Origin: an uncultured cyanobacterium
Lineage (GTDB): Bacteria; Cyanobacteriota; Cyanobacteriia; Cyanobacteriales; Cyanobacteriaceae
Length of the DNA: 64,000 bases
Assembly: GCA_963710605.1 (NCBI GenBank)
Contig: CAVQBA010000006.1
Span: forward strand, 160,001 to 224,000
Direction: 5' to 3'
Shown here: positions 4,704-61,320 of the stretch, piece after piece
How the letters are laid out: each line of letters starts with the position of its first letter
How positions within the stretch are numbered: position 1 is the stretch's first letter
The notes under the pieces: generated by a model
Told to the model about the DNA's origin: nothing
Database searches by the model: none
The model's input: only the letters and a program-made list of their open reading frames with translations
Made by a program: the position numbers and the translations under genes

Positions 4704-5032
4704 ATGTTATCTTCCCTTTAATATATATATACTAAATGTTTATCTATTGTATTAAGACTACTTTTCTTTATTGTGTCTCAATTTTCTTTTTTTTACTATC
4801 GATAATTTATTTAGTTAACCACAGATTGTAATGTTCTTATGTAAAGTATTATCGCAAATATTAATTAAATAGCCGAACATTCGCCGATAAATTTCATTTA
4901 AATTTATTAGTTTATTTTTATGAACGATTGTTATTAGCCTTGTTAATTTATACTTTGAGTTTATACAAGTGAAGGTTTTAAAACCCTGATGACAATCAAC
5001 TTGTTTTAAGGCAAATTTTGACAATGGGAATT

Positions 5033-7110: not shown

Positions 7111-7302
7111 CTAACCAAGATGGGATAAATAAGTCAAACAATCACGAACTAAAAAGTAAACGACCATCATCGCCGCGGCGGCTAACGCAACTAGTGTACC
7201 AGCTAGTATCAAGGAAAATTCTCGATGGTCAAAGGCTTTCTGCATCAAGTGCAAAGACCAAGCAACTAAAGCGACATCTAATATGAGAATAGGTATTAAC
7301 AT
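7111..7302 (-). CDS. Small two-TM cyanobacterial hypothetical protein
   Basis: 63 aa with two hydrophobic helices; downstream of hisF on the same strand. Confidence 0.7.
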   Translation of the reverse strand: MLIPILILDVALVAWSLHLMQKAFDHREFSLILAGTLVALAAAAMMVVYFLVRDCLTYLSHLG

Positions 7303-7373
7303 TTCTTAAAATATAAGTTCTATTCTATTTTAAACTAATTTTTTTAAGATATGAAGTTTTGTAAAGGCTAAAC

Positions 7374-45636: not shown

Positions 45637-47515
45637 TCATCTCATTAAATCAATAATCGTCGTCTTATCTAACATTTCTGGAGATAGATTAATATATTCT
45701 TTTTCCTGCTCTTCTTCAGTCACCGCAACAATAACTATTAGCTCCTGCCTTAGTCAAAATTTCTCTAAAATCAAGAGAATTAACTAATTTACTTACTAAA
45801 AATTTTCTAGTATATAGAGACTGTTCATTCTGATAAGAAGTAATAGAATTACCGATACTTACGTTAGCAAAATAAAATCTGTTTTCTTGGTTTATATTAA
45901 CTATTAAACCTAAAATATTTTGTTTTTTAGTGATGCTTATATTAGCAGAAGCAATTATTTTATTAACATCTACCATATAGTTTTTACCGAAATTATCGGG
46001 TTTTTCTTGGGCAACCAAAATCTTCGCTTCTACTTCGTCGCTTTTATTAAAATTGTAGTAATTAACCGTTAAAATACGTGCTTCTTGCTCAGCCTGTTTA
46101 AGATAAAAAAGTTCAGATGCCCCTTTTGGTGCAGGTGCGTTAGTAACATCTCCAGAAAATAAGACTTGTTTATCTGAGGAGCGATAATCGGCATCCCAAC
46201 CAATTTTACCTGATTCTCCAATAACAGATAAATCTAAATCGACTCTCTTAGTTTTTGTATTTGTCCAATGGATACCAACGATCGTATCTTGCTTGGTTAC
46301 AACATAACTACCCGTAGGTATATACCCTGTAAATTGCTTTTCGGTAGCAGGTAGAGCATAATGGACGTTAGCAGGAATATAAATAGTTTTACCTTCAACG
46401 TTTTTTTTCACATCTTCAACGATCGAATTTATAACTGCATTCAATGCTTGTTGGGTTTTATCTTTAACCACAGTCCACCATTCAAAGTCAAATTCCGTCG
46501 CCCAACCTTTTCCATTTCTGACTGTATAGACGATCGAATCACAAGCATTAAGACGATATTTTAAAGCATAAGCCAAACGAATTTTACGAAAAATAGTTGC
46601 TTTACCCAGTTTTTGAGCTAAGGTTTCTAGATTTAAGTTGTCCTGTTTTATCTGACTAGTAATGCTATTAAGATAATCTGGTGGTAAAGGTTTATGTAAC
46701 TTGTTCGCTTTTTTTCTTAACTGATTAAAATATGTTTTGTTACTAGAAATAGACTTCATTGCTAAGAATAAAGGTTTGAAGCGAAAGAAAATTGAGGCTA
46801 AATCATTTGGGGCATCTTGCAATAAAGTATCTAATAATTTACCGTTAGCTTGTTTAATTTTGTCGATTAGGTATTGATTTTTGATTAGTAATGATTCATC
46901 GGTTAATTTACTAATCAAATGACGTAAAAATTCAACTGGCTCTGATGGTACAATATGATAAAAATCGTATAGTAAGGCTTTTAATTCTCGATTACCTATT
47001 TTCTCAACAAAGCCTTTATCGTAATTGTGAGCTTTAATGATACTCATCATATCAGCCAGTGTTTCTGGAGATAAGGCGATACCATCGGCTAATTGAATGA
47101 TATTAGCTAAAATTTCCTCAGCAGTCATCGCTTTGATAATAACTAAAGGAATATCATCAGTAATCTCTGGTAACTCTAAAACTTCTTTGGGGATATAAAC
47201 GGCATCTTCTCGATAAATACCTATACTTTCAAAGCCGTAGGTGGTGATGTAATGAATAATCTGTTGCTTGACCAAAGATTCCATATCGGTATCTTGAATA
47301 ATCTGCCATGATTTGTGGAAAGCAGAATTAGCTTTAATGCCTGAAATACCGACTACACTTTCAATTGCATTTAGTAATTTTGTCTTAGGATTAATTGCTC
47401 GATCGAGAATATAACCCTGAGCGATCGTTCTTGCTAAAATAGATTCAGATATATCTTGATTATTTTTATTCTCAACCTCGATCGCATTAAATAATCTTAA
47501 CGTTGCTGGATTCAT
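45637..47515 (-). CDS. Probable ROT/TROVE-like helical + C-terminal TerD-like protein (frameshift near 45737)
   Basis: ATG at 47515 (MNPATLRLF); QIIHYITTYG, FFRFKPLFLA; TerD-like VGIHW...VDLDLS...FSGDVTNAP..GASE; the shifted frame ends INLSPEMLDKTTIIDLMR*. Confidence 0.65.
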
Positions 47516-47536
47516 TTTTCGTACTTTTAATTTTAA

Positions 47537-47608
47537 AGAGGGCGAGAGATAATTTGTTTTATTGCAAAAAACTGGCTTTCGCCATTCAAGGAATCTCTTT
47601 TGCCCTCT
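47537..47608 (-). ncRNA. Putative structured RNA / 5' leader element
   Basis: Closing stems AGAGGGC/GCCCTCT and AGAGAT/ATCTCT, a TGGC-GAAA-GCCA GNRA hairpin and a GTTTT/AAAAC hairpin. Confidence 0.6.
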
Positions 47609-47613
47609 CTTGT

Positions 47614-47730
47614 TGGGGAAGGTAGGATTTGAACCTACGTCCAACGAGACCAATAATAAAAGGAACTTTGGAGTGCATAGTAATGCGCAAAGTAAAAAAT
47701 CGTTGCTCTACCAGACTGAGCTACTTCCCC
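47614..47730 (-). ncRNA. tRNA-like RNA with a 52-nt structured insert replacing the anticodon loop
   Basis: GGGGAAG/CTTCCCC acceptor stem, GCTC-AGTCTGGTA-GAGC D arm, ACGA/TCGT stem and GTAGG-TTCAAAT-CCTAC T arm. Confidence 0.85.
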
Positions 47731-48092
47731 TTAATTGTTCCCTTTTCAGTTTAGCTTATTCATAAAATAATCAAGTTGAATTTTTATGAAGAATGAAAAG
47801 CGATCGCTTTAATCAACTCTCTCTATCGAAAAATATTTGTTGACTTAAAACCAGTTATTCTCTCTTTTTCTCTTCCTCCTTTCCACCTCTGATTCTGTAT
47901 TTTTCTCTCCTCATCTTTCTTCTCTCTGCGTACTCTGCGTACTCTGCGGTTAATTACCACTGACAATAAATGTCTAACACCACAGATATTTTTTACGATA
48001 CGATGCTTTAAAACTAAATTACCAGATCAATGACAAAATAAAAAGACAAGGCGTACCTTGTCTCTACGTTAGAAAATAAATTGTACCTTTAA

Positions 48093-50912
48093 TTAAACAG
48101 GTTGTGGTTGTGGCTGTGGTTGGAATTGGAATAGAGAATAAACGACATTACGACGAATATCGATCATCATTTCCAAGAACATTTCGTATCCTTCTTGTTT
48201 GTACTCAACTAAAGGATCTTTTTGTCCATAACCACGTAAACCAACCGATTCTCTTAAACCATCCATTGATTGTAAATGTTCACGCCATAGGTTATCAATT
48301 TGTTGCAGAATAAAGAATCTTTCTGCTTGTCGCATCAAACCCGGTTGCATTTGTTCAACTTGATTTTCTTTCAAGTCATAGGCTTTATGTACTTCTTCAT
48401 GGAGAAAAGTTTTCATTTCGGTAACTGTCATATCCGCCATATCTTCAATGGTGACATCTTCTAATAGATAGATAAATTCTTTAGCTTTAGCGACTAACGC
48501 TTCTACATTCCATTCATCAGGTGGTAAATCGGGGTTAACATAGGCATCAACTATCTCATCCATTGTACGAGTAGCGTAGTCTAAAACTTGCTCTCTTAAG
48601 TCTCTTCCTTCTAATACTCGACGACGCTCAGCATAAATAGCTCGACGTTGGTTGTTCATTACCTCGTCATATTCAAAGACTTGTTTACGGGCGTCATAAT
48701 AAAAGGTTTCAACTTTTTTCTGTGCACCTTCTAAAGAGCGAGTGAGCATACCCGATTCGATCGGCATATCTTCTTCTACTCTAAAAGCATTCATTAAACC
48801 TGCAACTCGATCGCCACCGAAAATACGTAGTAAATTATCTTCTAAGCTCAAAAAGAAGCGTGTAGAACCAGGATCTCCTTGTCTTCCTGCTCTTCCTCGT
48901 AATTGGTTATCAATACGGCGAGATTCGTGTCTTTCTGTCCCGATTACGTGCAAACCACCGTTATCGATTACCAAATCATGTTCACCATCGGTAACGCCTT
49001 CGTATTCAGCCAAAATTGCTTGATATACTTCTCGTAGTTTTTGAATTACAGAATCGTTTGTGGGTGCTTTTTCAGCGGCGATCGCAATTTTTTCTTCTGC
49101 GTCTAATTCAGATAAACTTTGTCTGCCATAATTTTGGACTGCAACGGCAACAGATTCTTTGAGTTTATTTTCGGTTTCAGGAGAAAGTTGGCAAGGAAAA
49201 AGATCAGATGTCGGTTTCCAGTTTTTGAGTTTTTTACCATTTTCGGCATTACCATCACCATTAAAACCTTGTCCTTTGGTGTGTTTTTTTAACATCGATG
49301 TAGCCATTAATTGATCTTCTTCAGGGATGACAATCTGAGGCATGAGATATTCTCTGATTTTTAATCTTGCCATATAGTCAGAGTTACCACCAAGGATGAT
49401 ATCTGTACCACGCCCTGCCATGTTGGTTGCGATCGTTACTGCTCCTTTTCTTCCCGCTTGAGCAACAATTTCGGATTCTCTTTCGACGTTTTCTGGACGA
49501 GCATTCAGAATGTTATGAGGTATTTTTTTCTCGACTAATAATTTAGATATTACCTCTGATTTCTCAACACTTGTAGTACCAACTAAGACAGGTCTGTTTG
49601 TTTCGTGCATTTCGGCACATTCTTCGGCTACTGCTTTCCATTTAGCAATTTCGTTTTTATAAACAACATCGGGTAAATCAGCTCGATCGGAAGGACGGTT
49701 AGTAGGTATGATGGTAACTTCAAGGCTATAAACTTTTTCAAATTCAGTTTCTTCAGTTTTAGCTGTACCTGTCATACCTGAAAGTTTGTTATATAACAAG
49801 AAGAAATTTTGATAAGTAATACTAGCTAGAGTTTGAGTTTCTTTTTGAATATCAACACCTTCTTTAGCTTCCATAGCTTGGTGCAAACCATCACTCCATC
49901 TTCTACCAGATAAAACCCTACCTGTATATTCATCGACAATGACAACTTCGTTATTACGAACAATATAGTTAACATCAGCGACGAATAATTCTTTGGCTTT
50001 AATAGCATTAAAAATATAATGAGCCCAAGGATTTTCTTGATCGTATAAATCAGTTACGCCTAATAATTCTTCAGCTTTAGCAAAACCTTCTTCAGTAAGA
50101 ATGACACTACGAGCTTTTTCATCAACTTCATAGTCATTACCATCATTTTCTTCTTTTTGTCTGACAAGCATGGAAGCAACTTCTTTGGCTTTAAGATATT
50201 TTTCCTGAGGGCGTTCAATTTGCCCTGAGATAATTAAAGGAGTACGAGCTTCATCAACTAAAATAGAGTCAACCTCATCAATGATGCAATAATTAGGTGG
50301 ACGTTGGACAACTTCATTAATGTCAGTTGACATATTATCTCGTAGATAATCAAAACCCAATTCACTGTTAGTAGCGTAGGTAATATCAGCGTTATAATTT
50401 TTTTGTCTTTCGGTGGCTGTCATCCCACCTTGAATTAAACCAACTTCTAAACCTAAAAAGCGATGTACTTGCCCCATCCACTCTGCGTCTCTTCGGGCTA
50501 GATAATCGTTGACTGTGACGACATGGACTCCTTTACCTGTTAAACCGTTAAGATAAGCGGGTAAAGTAGCAACGAGGGTTTTACCTTCCCCTGTTTTCAT
50601 CTCAGCAATTTGTCCTGAATTTAAGACAATTCCGCCTAACATTTGTACGTCATAATGACGCATTCCTAATACTCTAATTCCTGCTTCTCGCACCAAAGCA
50701 AAGGCTTCGGGAAGAATTTCTTCTAATATTTCTTCTTGCTCTTCGGTGGTATCTACTTTAGCTAACATTTGTTGGAATTCTGCGGTTTTCGATCGCATTT
50801 GGTCGTCTGTTAGCTGTTTGATATCTTCTTCTAAAAGATTAATCTCGGCGATTGAGGGTTGTAATTTTTTGAGTTTACGAGTGTTTGGATCACCAAATAA
50901 CTTTTTAAACAT
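48093..50912 (-). CDS. secA: Preprotein translocase subunit SecA
   Basis: [28 protein letters not shown] and [13 protein letters not shown]. Confidence 0.98.
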
Positions 50913-57750: not shown

Positions 57751-60700
57751 ATGGGGAAAGCAGTTAAAGCAGTCAAAAAAACCGTCAAGAAAGTTAGTAA
57801 CAAGGTTAACCCTTTCTATAAAAATGGCGGTAACCGCAACGATAGTTTTTCAATTTATGGTGCAGGTGCGGCTTATGGTAACGGAGGAAATGATACCCTC
57901 AGGGCTTATGCTATTTATGTCAAACTCAGTGGCGGTTGGGGTAATGATAATATTAAAGCCTATTCAGGTAGATCGGACTTGTACGGTGGCTCAGGTCATG
58001 ATTATATGGAAGCATGGGGGCTTTCTAACAAAATTAGAGGCGATTCAGGAAACGATACAATCAAAGCTCACGCCGCTCATAATGACATTTCAGGAGGAAC
58101 GGGACATGATAAAATCTACGCCTATGGTGGCTATAACAATGTCCGTGGTGATAGTAATAACGATCGTATTTATGCTTATGGTGCGGGTAATACAGTAGAT
58201 GGTGGTAGCGACAGTGACTATATTTATGCGGCGGCGGCTGGTAATTGGCTTTACGGCGGTTCGGGTAATGATACCATCGAAGCTCATGGTGGAGCGAATT
58301 TTATTTACGCAGGTTCTGATTACGATACTATTAGAGCTTACGGCGGTGCGAATATTATCGATGCTAATGACGATAGTGATTATGACAATATCGAAGCCTA
58401 TGGTGGTGCTAATGTAGTGAATGCAGGTGGTGGTAGCGATCGAATTATCGTCGGTGGTATCGGTAATAAGGTTAATGCAGGTAACGGTAATAACTATATT
58501 GAAGGTTATGGTGGTGCTAATGTAGTTAATACTGGTAGTGGAAACGATCGTATTATTGCAGGTGGTATCGGTAATGTAGTTAACGCAGGTAGTGGTAATA
58601 ACAGTATCGAAGCCTATGGCGGTGTCAATGTAGTTAATACTGGCTCAGGCAACGATAATATCACTGTCGGTGGCGGATTAAACGTCGTTGTTGCGGGTAC
58701 TGGAAACGATAAAATTAAAGCCTTTGGTGGTGCTAATGTTGTTTACACTTCAGGTGGTAATAACGAAATACTCGGTATCGGGCTTGGTGGTAACGTTTTT
58801 GTCAAAACAGGAAATGGTAATGACAAAATGTATGCCGCAGGTGGTTTAAATGTAATGGCTAAAGTCGCCGACGGCGATACCACAATGATGGTGGGAGGGT
58901 TATATAATATCCTGACTAAAATCGGTGACGGTGATGATACTTTTGTCACTTTAGGTAAAGGTAATCTTAATACTAAAATTGGTGATGGTAGCTCTTTAAT
59001 GCTCAGTGGCGGTTTATACAACATAACCACCTCATGGGGTGAAAGCAATGATTTAATCGCTTCAGTTGGTTTATCTAATGTAGCGATCGCTGGTGCTAAA
59101 GACGATAAAATATTTTTAGCAGGAATAGGAAACCTTGCCTTTGGTGATTCTTTAGCAATTTCTCTTGATAGCTTTAAAAGTGAAGAAAGCAAACAAGCAG
59201 GAAAAGATGCTAAAACAGATGAGGTAAATACGGGTGTTGATTGGGAAAGTGTAGTCAATAGCCTTACTGCTACCCTCGATGTTACTGGAGATGATTTGGT
59301 TGTCGCTTTGGGTTTAAATAACGCCGTAGTTGGCGGTAGAGGTGCGGATACATTAGTAACAATGGGACAAAATAATGTTTCTGTAGCTGATAATTTAACT
59401 GATGTAATTAATGATTTTAGTATCGATTTAACTAATCTTACTAATATCGGTGCTAACGTTATTCTTCCTGAATGGAATTTTGACTTTTCTCCTGAAGTAA
59501 CTCTTCCTGAGTTTAATTTCGATTTTTCTCCTGAAGTAATTTTGCCAGAATTTAATTTAGATTTAACTCCCTCTATTATTCTCCCTGAATGGAATTTTGA
59601 TTTTTCTCCTGAAATCAGTTTACCTACTTTCAGTGCTGACTTATTCCCTTCTATCACTTTACCAGAATGGAATTTAGATTTCGATCGTCTCAATTTTGAT
59701 TTTACTGGCGAAAATGACGATACTCAAGTTAGTCTTGGTTTAAACAATATCTTATTCAGTAATGACGGAAACGATCGAGTTTATGCAGTGGGTAAAAACA
59801 ATTTCATCCACAGTGGAGAAGGTGATGATTTAGTAACCAGTCTTGGATTAAATAATGTCATTGTTGGTGATGAAGGTGCGGATACAATCATTAATGTCGG
59901 TAAGAATAACTTGATTTTAGGTGATTATTTAGAAATACCTGATTTAAGTGATTTGACGATCGATTTATCGGGTTTTGGCTTTGACTTTAGTTTCCCAGAC
60001 ATCGACTTATCAGATTTTGGCTTTGATTTAGGTATTCCCACGATCGATTTATCGGGTTTTGGCTTTGACTTTGCTCTCCCCGATATTGACTTGTCAGGAT
60101 TAGGATTTGATTTTTCACTTCCCGATTTAGATTTATCAGGCTTCGGTTTTGACTTTGCTATTCCTGATTTAGACTTATCTGGTTTAGGATTCGATTTAAG
60201 TCTCGATTTTGAAGATATTATTCTTAGTGCTGGTACAAATAATATTGCTTATAGTGGTGGTGGTGATGACTTGACTGTAACCTATAGTCAAAATATTAAA
60301 AGTCAGGTACAAGAAAGCTCTGGTAACGACAACCAAAGCACTTTAACTAAACTAGCTAATATGGGTTGGAATGTCTCGCTATCTGGTGATGGTGATGATG
60401 TAACGATCGGTGTTGGTAACTATAATATGCTTAGTGGTGGTGATGGTGATGATAATCTTTGGGCAGGGCAACTACCAAAAATAAAAGATACTACTGGCGA
60501 TTCAACCTTAACTAATCTTAAAAACAGAGCTAGTAATTTATTAACCATCAAAAGATTAGCCACTGGTGCAATCGAATATATCGGCAGTGGTGATGAAGTT
60601 TCTGCAATACAAACGATCGCTGGTAAAAGTAATTTTAATATGTTGCTCGGTGGTGAAGGAAAAGATACTTTATGGAGTAAAGGTAAGGGTAATATTCTCC

Positions 60701-61320
60701 ATGGTGGTAAAGGTGACGATGTAATTTCTGCTAATGGGCATCTTAATATTGCTCTTGGTGGCGATGGTGATGATTACATTGAAACAACAGGATTATTTAG
60801 CTCGGTGCATGGTGGAGATGGCGATGATGCAATTTTTGTCCAAGATGTAGCCAGTCAAATTTATGGTGGTGATGGAGACGATTTGATCGGTTTAGGTGGC
60901 ATCAAAGGTGGTATTCTTAGTACTCTAGATGGTGGTAAAGGAAATGACACTTATGCGATCGATACTGATTTATTTCAACTCTCAACTTTAGCTAGTGCTA
61001 CTTATATCAATAATGATGGCGATAACAATAGTATAGATACTCTTTTGTTTGGTGGCGAAGTTACTGCAACAGAGATTAAATTTAGTCGCTTTGATAATAC
61101 AGATTTGGAAGTAGGCATTTTCGGTACTAACAGACATCTTATCCTTCAAGATTGGTATGAAAACGAAACTGGACGCATTGATACTTTCCAAATTAGTCAA
61201 GGTGCTAGTTTAGAGAAATCACAAGTTGAGCAGTTAGTAAATAATTGGGAAAACTTTGATACTGGTTTGATTAGTCAATCTCAATTAGATACTACGATTA
61301 ATAATAGTTGGATTGTTTAG
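57751..61320 (+). CDS. RTX/MARTX-like repeat protein, probable type I secretion substrate
   Basis: 18-aa GGxGxD..GGxN repeats, K(V/I)(G/A)DGD repeats, C-terminal nonapeptide repeats and a hemolysin-type tail LILQDWY..RIDTFQ. Confidence 0.85.
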   Translation: MGKAVKAVKKTVKKVSNKVNPFYKNGGNRNDSFSIYGAGAAYGNGGNDTLRAYAIYVKLSGGWGNDNIKAYSGRSDLYGGSGHDYMEAWGLSNKIRGDSGNDTIKAHAAHNDISGGTGHDKIYAYGGYNNVRGDSNNDRIYAYGAGNTVDGGSDSDYIYAAAAGNWLYGGSGNDTIEAHGGANFIYAGSDYDTIRAYGGANIIDANDDSDYDNIEAYGGANVVNAGGGSDRIIVGGIGNKVNAGNGNNYIEGYGGANVVNTGSGNDRIIAGGIGNVVNAGSGNNSIEAYGGVNVVNTGSGNDNITVGGGLNVVVAGTGNDKIKAFGGANVVYTSGGNNEILGIGLGGNVFVKTGNGNDKMYAAGGLNVMAKVADGDTTMMVGGLYNILTKIGDGDDTFVTLGKGNLNTKIGDGSSLMLSGGLYNITTSWGESNDLIASVGLSNVAIAGAKDDKIFLAGIGNLAFGDSLAISLDSFKSEESKQAGKDAKTDEVNTGVDWESVVNSLTATLDVTGDDLVVALGLNNAVVGGRGADTLVTMGQNNVSVADNLTDVINDFSIDLTNLTNIGANVILPEWNFDFSPEVTLPEFNFDFSPEVILPEFNLDLTPSIILPEWNFDFSPEISLPTFSADLFPSITLPEWNLDFDRLNFDFTGENDDTQVSLGLNNILFSNDGNDRVYAVGKNNFIHSGEGDDLVTSLGLNNVIVGDEGADTIINVGKNNLILGDYLEIPDLSDLTIDLSGFGFDFSFPDIDLSDFGFDLGIPTIDLSGFGFDFALPDIDLSGLGFDFSLPDLDLSGFGFDFAIPDLDLSGLGFDLSLDFEDIILSAGTNNIAYSGGGDDLTVTYSQNIKSQVQESSGNDNQSTLTKLANMGWNVSLSGDGDDVTIGVGNYNMLSGGDGDDNLWAGQLPKIKDTTGDSTLTNLKNRASNLLTIKRLATGAIEYIGSGDEVSAIQTIAGKSNFNMLLGGEGKDTLWSKGKGNILHGGKGDDVISANGHLNIALGGDGDDYIETTGLFSSVHGGDGDDAIFVQDVASQIYGGDGDDLIGLGGIKGGILSTLDGGKGNDTYAIDTDLFQLSTLASATYINNDGDNNSIDTLLFGGEVTATEIKFSRFDNTDLEVGIFGTNRHLILQDWYENETGRIDTFQISQGASLEKSQVEQLVNNWENFDTGLISQSQLDTTINNSWIV

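Follow-up and report, generated by a model that had tools for sequence, protein, structure and literature searches.

A structured RNA module, free-standing or set into tRNA-like genes, is coupled to one uncharacterised protein family

Introduction

What is the role of a small structured RNA that lies directly upstream of a large protein-coding gene and shares a motif with the tRNA-like gene beside it? This question is raised by a locus of an uncultured cyanobacterium of the family Cyanobacteriaceae (assembly GCA_963710605.1), which we analysed in a 64-kb stretch of contig CAVQBA010000006.1 (positions 160,001 to 224,000; referred to as the window and numbered from its first nucleotide). All features of the locus are on the minus strand and are given here in 5' to 3' order on that strand. 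A tRNA-like gene (47730..47614) is separated by 5 nt from a 72-nt RNA (47608..47537), which is in turn separated by 21 nt from the ATG, at 47515, of an open reading frame (ORF) that ends at 45716 and encodes a protein of 599 amino acids (aa). The results showed that the 72-nt RNA and the insert of the tRNA-like gene are one conserved module in two topologies, and that this module, with its covarying structure and its permuted forms, is coupled genomically to the family of the 599-aa protein. It is apparently an undescribed RNA family, widespread in bacteria, archaea and phages and tied to an uncharacterised protein family; no description of the RNA or the protein was found in the full-text literature, the coverage of which leaves out subscription journals and supplements, so that a prior description is possible.

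A single-copy structured RNA precedes the start codon

An earlier note on this DNA had described the RNA as a bulged closing helix with a GNRA-capped hairpin, had pointed to an unpaired UUCCUU in both this RNA and the tRNA-like insert, and had proposed that the hexamer is a repeated protein-recognition site. The quoted RNA is real, but it lies on the minus strand, the quoted string being the reverse complement of 47537..47608. RNAfold reproduced the described fold, with a minimum free energy (MFE) of -24.1 kcal/mol (z = -3.64; 1 of 200 shuffled sequences was equally stable), and UUCCUU does follow a helix strand directly in both RNAs (CAAAG-UUCCUU at 47670..47660 and AGAGA-UUCCUU at 47598..47588). 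In seven relatives the second hairpin reads UUAGU...ACUAA instead of GUUUU/AAAAC, which is compensatory at three pairs, and the loop of the first hairpin is GAAA, GUAA or UUAC (both by eye). The hexamer TTCCTT occurs 50 times in the window against 59.8 expected and is thus not above chance, while the 16-nt half-motif GGCANANNNNRTTCCT occurs once against 0.02 expected. TTCCTT alone proves nothing; the significance comes from conservation, covariation and co-occurrence at related loci.

A covariance model of the element (R1, trained on 30 copies from genome loci) matched the 72-nt RNA with 52.7 bits (E 2.7e-11), which was the only R1 match in the window and in the organism's own genome. A dispersed repeat or miniature inverted-repeat transposable element is ruled out, as BLAST and the covariance model both found the 74-nt element to be single-copy in this genome. 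A cmscan of the window with Rfam 15 gave no family for the RNA at the gathering level, and the sole row at E <= 10 in the region 47300..48100, snR46 on the other strand with 13.3 bits, is at chance level. Two further structural ideas were dropped. The AnA bulge is not followed by the tandem G-A pairs of a kink-turn, and pairing of UCCU with a Shine-Dalgarno sequence was set aside as a general mechanism, given that the 21-nt spacer of the window gene has no Shine-Dalgarno-like sequence and that UCCU is equally invariant in copies distant from any start codon.

The module is conserved and covaries at homologous loci

The comparison covered 38 loci from genomes and 79 from viral contigs, each encoding a homologue of the 599-aa protein (L, G and C numbers below are our handles for loci, genomes and contigs). 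Upstream of nearly every homologue we found a motif that runs GGC, A-n-A, four free bases, G-U, UCCU(U/A) and a variable stretch, followed by a 3' half of U, A-C, four complementary bases, C and GCC. It folds into a P1 helix (GGC/GCC), an internal loop of AnA versus C, a 6-bp P2 helix of free sequence ending in U-A, and an unpaired UCCU. The earlier note was therefore right about a shared element, but the shared unit is this whole P1/internal-loop/P2/UCCU module rather than the hexamer alone. A search for the 5' half-motif, in which pairing was not presupposed, gave 191 occurrences on the gene strand against 2 on the opposite strand (117 loci, 876 kb), and 172 of the 191 were accompanied by a perfect 6-bp partner, the bulge and GC.

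R1 had 42 matches in the genome loci (28 of 38 positive) and 211 in the viral loci (75 of 79 positive), all 253 of them on the strand of the protein gene; the four negative viral loci each have less than 60 nt of upstream sequence. In the viral set, which is independent of the training but was aligned by fitting to R1 and so somewhat favours the structure, 94.9% of cells were paired and 11 of 12 pairs showed changes on both sides. None of 500 shuffles reached these values, and slid controls were 37-52% paired. Among the unpaired positions, A7, U17-C18-C19-U20 and the U before the 3' strand of P2 were 100% conserved, the bulged C 98% and A9 97%. The length of the variable region runs from 15 to over 90 nt, and an entire tRNA-like domain can fill it. 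Lack of conservation or covariation at homologous loci had been named beforehand as the outcome that would speak against a recognition site, and the opposite was found, across phyla and phages and with strong compensatory changes.

The module occurs where the protein occurs

Across 41 related genomes, an R1 match and the protein were present in the same 8, and the other 33 had neither. The tRNA-like gene, the RNA and the start of the ORF were kept together in 7 of the 19 genomes of the same family (BLAST against 40 relatives). No other gene is conserved beside the protein family in the 79 viral loci, where the commonest neighbour cluster is found at 7 loci. Because the element recurs upstream of homologues, covaries and occurs exactly where the protein does, a repeated recognition site for the downstream protein, as judged from sequence comparison, is the best-supported reading of the module.

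A question raised by this arrangement is whether the module is simply a cis-regulatory leader, that is, an operator in the 5' untranslated region (UTR) by which the protein, or some other factor, would set how well its mRNA is translated or how stable it is, without any independent noncoding RNA. Such a leader would account for the position of the last copy, on the strand of the gene and with a median of 34 nt (range 17-343) between its end and the protein match, for the 21-nt gap to the ATG in the window, and for the absence of a terminator-like site between RNA and ORF in a consensus scan. However, the number of upstream copies varies from 0 to 7 (strict pattern), with up to 7 in tandem; copies also lie 3' of the gene at L060, L064, L065, L067, L077 and L130; in cyanophage S-CBWM1 one copy is ~2.5 kb upstream, within a tRNA array; and other copies sit inside tRNA-like genes with an encoded CCA or enclose a tRNA domain like that of YrlA RNAs. 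These arrays, downstream copies and tRNA-like forms do not sit easily with a pure leader, which we consider unlikely. The earlier note had placed the RNA just before the start codon, as it is, and had added that the protein might regulate itself; the position of the last copy is compatible with such autoregulation, and the multiple copies, downstream copies and tRNA-like versions suggest that the module is more than a leader.

The tRNA-like gene carries a circularly permuted copy

The tRNA-like gene matches the Rfam tRNA cloverleaf (RF00005) with 58.4 bits against a gathering threshold of 29. It has acceptor, D and T arms and an anticodon stem of 4-5 bp, and a 45-nt insert takes the place of the anticodon loop. 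It has no anticodon and no encoded CCA, an anticodon hairpin was not seen on reading, and ARAGORN did not call the gene in the window. The insert had been reported to carry the shared motif, which it does, although what replaces the anticodon loop is a circular permutation of the module: the 3' strand of P2 comes first, followed by the C, the P1 hairpin, an AnA-like linker, the 5' strand of P2 and UCCU. In this topology a loop caps P1, and the open end of P2 faces the anticodon stem. In an alignment (A5) of the window gene and 17 homologous tRNA-like genes, which were picked through Rfam tRNA matches and blind to the module, 95.5% of cells were paired over the full structure and 98% in P2, four of whose six pairs covary.

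A pattern census gave 31 copies in this tRNA order at 28 loci, the window included. A second arrangement, in which the stem lies outside and the T arm, a closed acceptor and the D arm lie inside, was counted 8 times at 7 loci; one case is an artefact of adjacent genes, leaving seven real copies at L059, L109, L111/L112, L115 and L120. In the cyanobacterial relatives the tRNA insert consists of one module or of two in tandem. The tandem form is present at L011-L015 (G010, G006, G004, G012 and G017), where the first module is followed by a small hairpin with a 7-nt anticodon-like loop in four relatives (CUUUUUU, UUAUUAA and, twice, CUUCUAA; G017 differs) and where the tRNA's own loop is CUCAUAA. 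In G018 the tRNA-like gene and the stand-alone RNA are found on two contig ends (L016/L023, contig G018:C12, 1-240, and L019, contig G018:C84). The sequence abutting the RNA there encodes a C-terminal peptide, CENCGLKIDRDLNASINL, which we take to be TnpB-like, and then runs into structured sequence; this suggests an insertion of the IS200/IS605 type between the two RNAs.

Group I introns are found in cyanobacterial tRNA-Leu and tRNA-fMet genes, and archaeal tRNAs contain non-canonical introns. Could the module likewise be an excisable, intron-like element or processing signal of tRNA precursors, with the protein acting, as enzyme or cofactor, in its removal or processing? The insert does interrupt the anticodon arm, and in the cyanobacterial relatives, L031 and L032:1065 it lies between nt 29 and 30 of the anticodon stem and is followed by a complete anticodon hairpin. 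Excision there would restore a perfect anticodon arm with the loop CUCAUAA or CUUAUAA (cyanobacterial relatives), CUCUUAA (L031) or CUUCGAA (L032), and a CCA is encoded after 9 of the 31 tRNA-order copies (loops and CCA by eye). Nevertheless, most tRNA-embedded copies, the window's among them, have no anticodon hairpin, and 195 of 219 copies (strict pattern) stand alone outside any tRNA. Each of the three ordinary tRNA(CAU) genes has an orthologue at another place in four relatives (G010, G006, G004 and G017), and two of them were matched in G019, so that the CAU tRNA-like gene is not needed as a tRNA. Moreover, neither Pfam nor NCBIfam gave a nuclease or ligase signature for the protein, and the insert, at 45 nt and without a match to an Rfam intron family, falls well short of the size of a group I intron. 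These findings make an excisable element quite improbable.

A ligand-sensing riboswitch or a protein-independent element such as a terminator or RNase site, which the highly conserved unpaired nucleotides and the 5'-UTR location might suggest, is scarcely credible for a core that is merely a bulged helix, has a variable region able to hold an entire tRNA-like domain, recurs in arrays of up to 7 copies without an expression platform or U-tract, and is coupled to one protein family instead of a metabolic pathway.

The protein combines a helical domain with a TerD fold

If the module is a recognition site, what kind of protein would recognise it? The models give the 599-aa protein a helical N-terminal domain (residues ~1-375) and a TerD-fold C-terminal domain (~400-550). 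Sequence searches gave little. Pfam had nothing significant (the only row at E <= 1 was AbrB_C, E 0.096, 12.8 bits against a cut-off of 22.8), NCBIfam had only a weak local match (RING_SCO0854, 33.9 bits against a cut-off of 600), and there was no match in PHROGs, PADLOC or the PDB sequences, the last searched with both the single sequence and a 76-sequence profile. The nearest ESM Atlas clusters were unnamed and mostly viral, with no lead for the N-terminal domain. The family is large and strongly conserved: it has more than 2122 matches and at least 1569 clusters at 50% identity (E <= 0.001), 1045 of them with E <= 1e-30, and members with 60-80% identity are spread across Cyanobacteria, Desulfobacterota, Chloroflexota and Gammaproteobacteria.

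The full-length AlphaFold2 model (20 sequences) was mediocre, with a predicted local distance difference test (pLDDT) of 67.5 overall and ~60-76 in the C-terminal domain. Foldseek matched this domain to the TerD structures 2kxt, 3ibz, 2qng and 2qz7 with probability 1.0 and a template-modelling (TM) score, normalised to the target, of 0.5-0.56, and the acidic residues D426, D428, D441, D456 and E468 are invariant in the family. The Pfam TerD model (PF02342) had no match to it at E <= 1. The N-terminal domain (residues 1-380, 76 sequences) gave a confident helical model with a pLDDT of 81.6 and a predicted TM score of 0.72. No convincing fold relative was found in the PDB (best Foldseek E 0.24); the best hit of VIA-align in its wide setting (Z 7.1) was limited to a helical stretch of ~80 residues; and in BFVD only family members were found, apart from two TROVE rows at E ~1 with a probability of 0.07-0.21. 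A modelled domain left unmatched in this way does not show a new fold. No Ro60 chain was present in the Foldseek or VIA-align lists for the protein models.

The ORF of the window ends ~25 residues earlier than its homologues, and past about residue 592 the conserved tail is out of frame. This C-terminal tail (…YINLSPEMLDKTTIIDLMR; EKEYINLSPEMLDKTTIIDLMR) is encoded in another frame at 45716-45790 on the minus strand, which would reflect either a one-base indel, that is, a real frameshift, or an assembly error.

Comparison with known RNA-protein systems

By analogy, the closest known system is Ro60 with its Y RNAs (YrlA, RF02553; Rsr/TROVE). In both cases small RNAs, often in several copies, are encoded beside one large protein gene on the same strand and have a conserved bulged stem, which in a minority of the module copies encloses a tRNA-like domain. 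The copies at L059 and L120 have the order of YrlA itself, namely stem, T arm, closed acceptor, D arm and stem; L059 scores 42 bits over the full Rfam YrlA model, below the gathering threshold of 69, and L120 has two partial YrlA matches. The plan of the protein, a large helical domain followed by a C-terminal metal-site domain, is loosely like that of Ro60. Y RNA systems, too, are found in phages and near RNA-repair genes (PMC4201824; PMC7824862), and the former paper gives GNCGAAN0-1G near the 5' end of YrlA as the presumed Ro60 site.

The differences are nonetheless considerable. The module RNA has the consensus GGC-A-n-A-NNNNGU-UCCU and no GNCGAA; most of its copies have no tRNA-like domain; and many tRNA-like copies, including that of the window, are in ordinary tRNA order with open acceptor ends. 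No YrlA match covers the window RNA, and the tRNA-like gene has only a 19-nt D-arm match of 14.6 bits. Unlike Ro60, in which a TROVE ring of HEAT repeats is joined to a vWA domain, the protein matches neither TROVE nor vWA; its C-terminal domain has the TerD fold, and its helical N-terminal domain has an unmatched fold. No TROVE gene (PF05731) was found in the organism's own genome, which is 85% complete. The module RNA thus lacks each defining feature of a Y RNA for which it was tested, namely a score at the gathering level, GNCGAA and a TROVE neighbour (within ~4 kb, same strand). Because TROVE appears only at E ~1 and the N-terminal domain has no convincing structural relative, the protein is not demonstrably Ro60-like.

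Other comparisons reach less far. In type III toxin-antitoxin systems (ToxI/ToxN), a protein gene is directly preceded on its strand by structured RNA units in tandem, as it is by the modules here; however, the modules are not near-identical repeats, since their helices covary and their loops differ, and the ~620-aa protein has no PADLOC match and no endoribonuclease signature. The protein shares the beta-sandwich of TerD proteins (PF02342), as modelled over its C-terminal 150 residues, but this domain is fused to a large helical domain, and no genes of a Ter operon were found among the neighbours checked. To our knowledge, no RNA partner of TerD proteins has been described, and no paper joining TerD to tRNA-like or noncoding RNA was found in the full-text literature.

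Phage relatives and their neighbours

Homologues are encoded by the cultured Synechococcus cyanophages S-CRM01 (30% identity) and S-CBWM1 (27% identity), in both cases in the middle of large tRNA arrays, with six and two R1 copies nearby, respectively. In S-CRM01 (L140), three of the five R1 matches (4747-4971, plus strand) upstream of g174 are overlapped by g173c, a 48-aa ORF on the minus strand (4791-4937) that is probably no real gene. In S-CBWM1 (L141), two features annotated as 'tRNA-pseudo' (7183-7359) lie just 3' of the family member gp22/gp23 and may be tRNA-like RNAs of the module system.

A neighbour scan of 145 of the 261 nearest-neighbour ORFs of viral loci, plus 16 cluster representatives, found RNA-repair genes at several loci. 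RNA ligases adjoin the family at L069, L070, L106 and L122 and RtcB at L101; a CCA-adding enzyme and RlaP lie nearby at L134 and L137, the RlaP cluster being present at 6 loci; and a HAD_SAK_2 RNA-repair domain is found near the family at L132. Replication genes are also numerous among these neighbours. At L142 (Phage Phass-1) and L065, the family member stands beside genes for nicotinamide adenine dinucleotide (NAD) salvage, namely a nicotinamidase/isochorismatase, NAMPT or NAPRTase, a phosphoribosyl pyrophosphate (PRPP) synthetase and NAD synthase.

A candidate RNA-protein particle

Overall, we think it likely that the module is the cognate RNA partner, and most probably the binding site, of the downstream protein, the two forming a Y-RNA-like RNA-protein particle. 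What we infer in this reading is physical binding, co-transcription, processing, feedback and a role in the biology of tRNA or RNA damage. The tRNA-like RNA, the module and the mRNA would probably be transcribed as one precursor, from which tRNA-processing enzymes would release the tRNA-like RNA. RNAs and protein would then assemble into a particle like that of Ro60 and Y RNA, in which the conserved bulged stem holds the protein and the variable or tRNA-like part would serve as effector, mimic or decoy. Through the copy that lies ~20-35 nt ahead of the start codon, the protein could in addition control its own translation by feedback.

Several points weigh against this particle. The training copies of R1 were chosen for their P1 and P2 pairing, which makes pair counts on the training set circular. 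The RNA consensus has no Ro60-binding GNCGAA, and the variable region of the window copy holds no tRNA-like domain. On the protein side, no RNA-binding or TROVE domain is recognisable and the N-terminal domain has no fold match; moreover, this particular protein copy may be impaired by the lost frame of its tail, unless the assembly is in error. The RNA-repair neighbours occur at only a minority of phage loci, and their raw counts are a hint rather than a statistic. Finally, the constant place of the last copy before the start codon fits a cis-regulatory leader equally well.

A more specific form of the particle reading is possible, if on balance doubtful: the family might be a second, Ro60-independent class, in which TerD-domain proteins, spread by phages over bacteria and archaea, are loaded with arrays of small RNAs. 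The stem would bind the protein, and the variable parts, which extend to complete tRNA mimics with CCA ends and sometimes with anticodon hairpins on display (CAU, UAU, CUU and UCG), would be the decoys, sensors or scaffolds of a conflict between phage and host over tRNA cleavage and repair.

If the particle reading is correct, it would give a first clue to the function of a family that has at least 1569 clusters at 50% identity and neither a Pfam model nor an annotation, and it would add a new structured RNA family with hundreds of covarying instances. It would also mean that the design of Y RNAs, a protein-binding stem plus a tRNA mimic, has served on more than one occasion or has changed so far that it is no longer recognised. 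The permutation between tRNA order and YrlA order would then be a natural experiment, with the three-dimensional juxtaposition of a tRNA-shaped body and a protein-bound stem as the selected feature. Phage tRNA arrays together with RNA ligases, RtcB and CCA-adding enzymes would point to the upkeep of tRNAs in the infected cell, a topic of active research on phage defence.

Layout of the locus

The features of the locus are collected in Table 1. In a consensus scan, the unit of tRNA-like gene, RNA and ORF is limited upstream by the terminator-like hairpin behind secA, with a spacer of ~310 nt before the tRNA-like gene; no terminator-like site was found between its three members. The same scan found no sigma-70 consensus site on the minus strand upstream of the tRNA-like gene, which is uninformative.

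Table 1 Features of the locus on the minus strand, in 5' to 3' order
Feature	Position	Strand	Basis
secA	50912..48093	-	5'-most gene of the order described
Terminator-like hairpin 3' of secA	48042..48065	-	consensus match only
tRNA-like gene	47614..47730	-	Rfam tRNA 58.4 bits, 45-nt insertion
Circularly permuted module in tRNA-like gene	47660..47693	-	sequence and alignment A5
Permuted P2, 3' strand ACUUUG	47693-47688	-	sequence
Permuted copy, bulged C	47687	-	sequence
Permuted P1 hairpin GCAU-UACU-AUGC	47686-47675	-	sequence
Permuted linker ACUC	47674-47671	-	sequence
Permuted P2, 5' strand CAAAGU	47670-47665	-	sequence
Permuted copy, UCCUU	47664-47660	-	sequence
Stand-alone module copy, 72-nt three-way junction	47537..47608	-	sequence, MFE fold, covariance model R1
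P1, AGAGGGC/GCCCUCU	47608-47602 with 47543-47537	-	RNAfold
Internal loop, AAA versus bulged C	47601-47599 versus 47544	-	RNAfold
P2, AGAGAU/AUCUCU	47598-47593 with 47550-47545	-	RNAfold
Unpaired UCCUU	47592-47588	-	sequence
Variable region, lineage-specific	47556..47584	-	fold and relatives
Hairpin UGGC-GAAA-GCCA	47584-47573	-	RNAfold
Hairpin GUUUU-UUGCAAU-AAAAC	47572-47556	-	RNAfold
ORF P0001, 599 aa	45716..47515	-	translation

Elsewhere in the window, an ORF of 1189 aa on the plus strand (57751-61320) consists mostly of Gly/Asp-rich repeats (GGxGxD-like, by eye in the style of RTX/hemolysin-type calcium-binding repeats) and is overlapped by spurious ORFs on both strands. In the organism's own genome, ARAGORN called 39 tRNAs, one of which has the anticodon CUA and is labelled 'tRNA-Pyl' by the tool.
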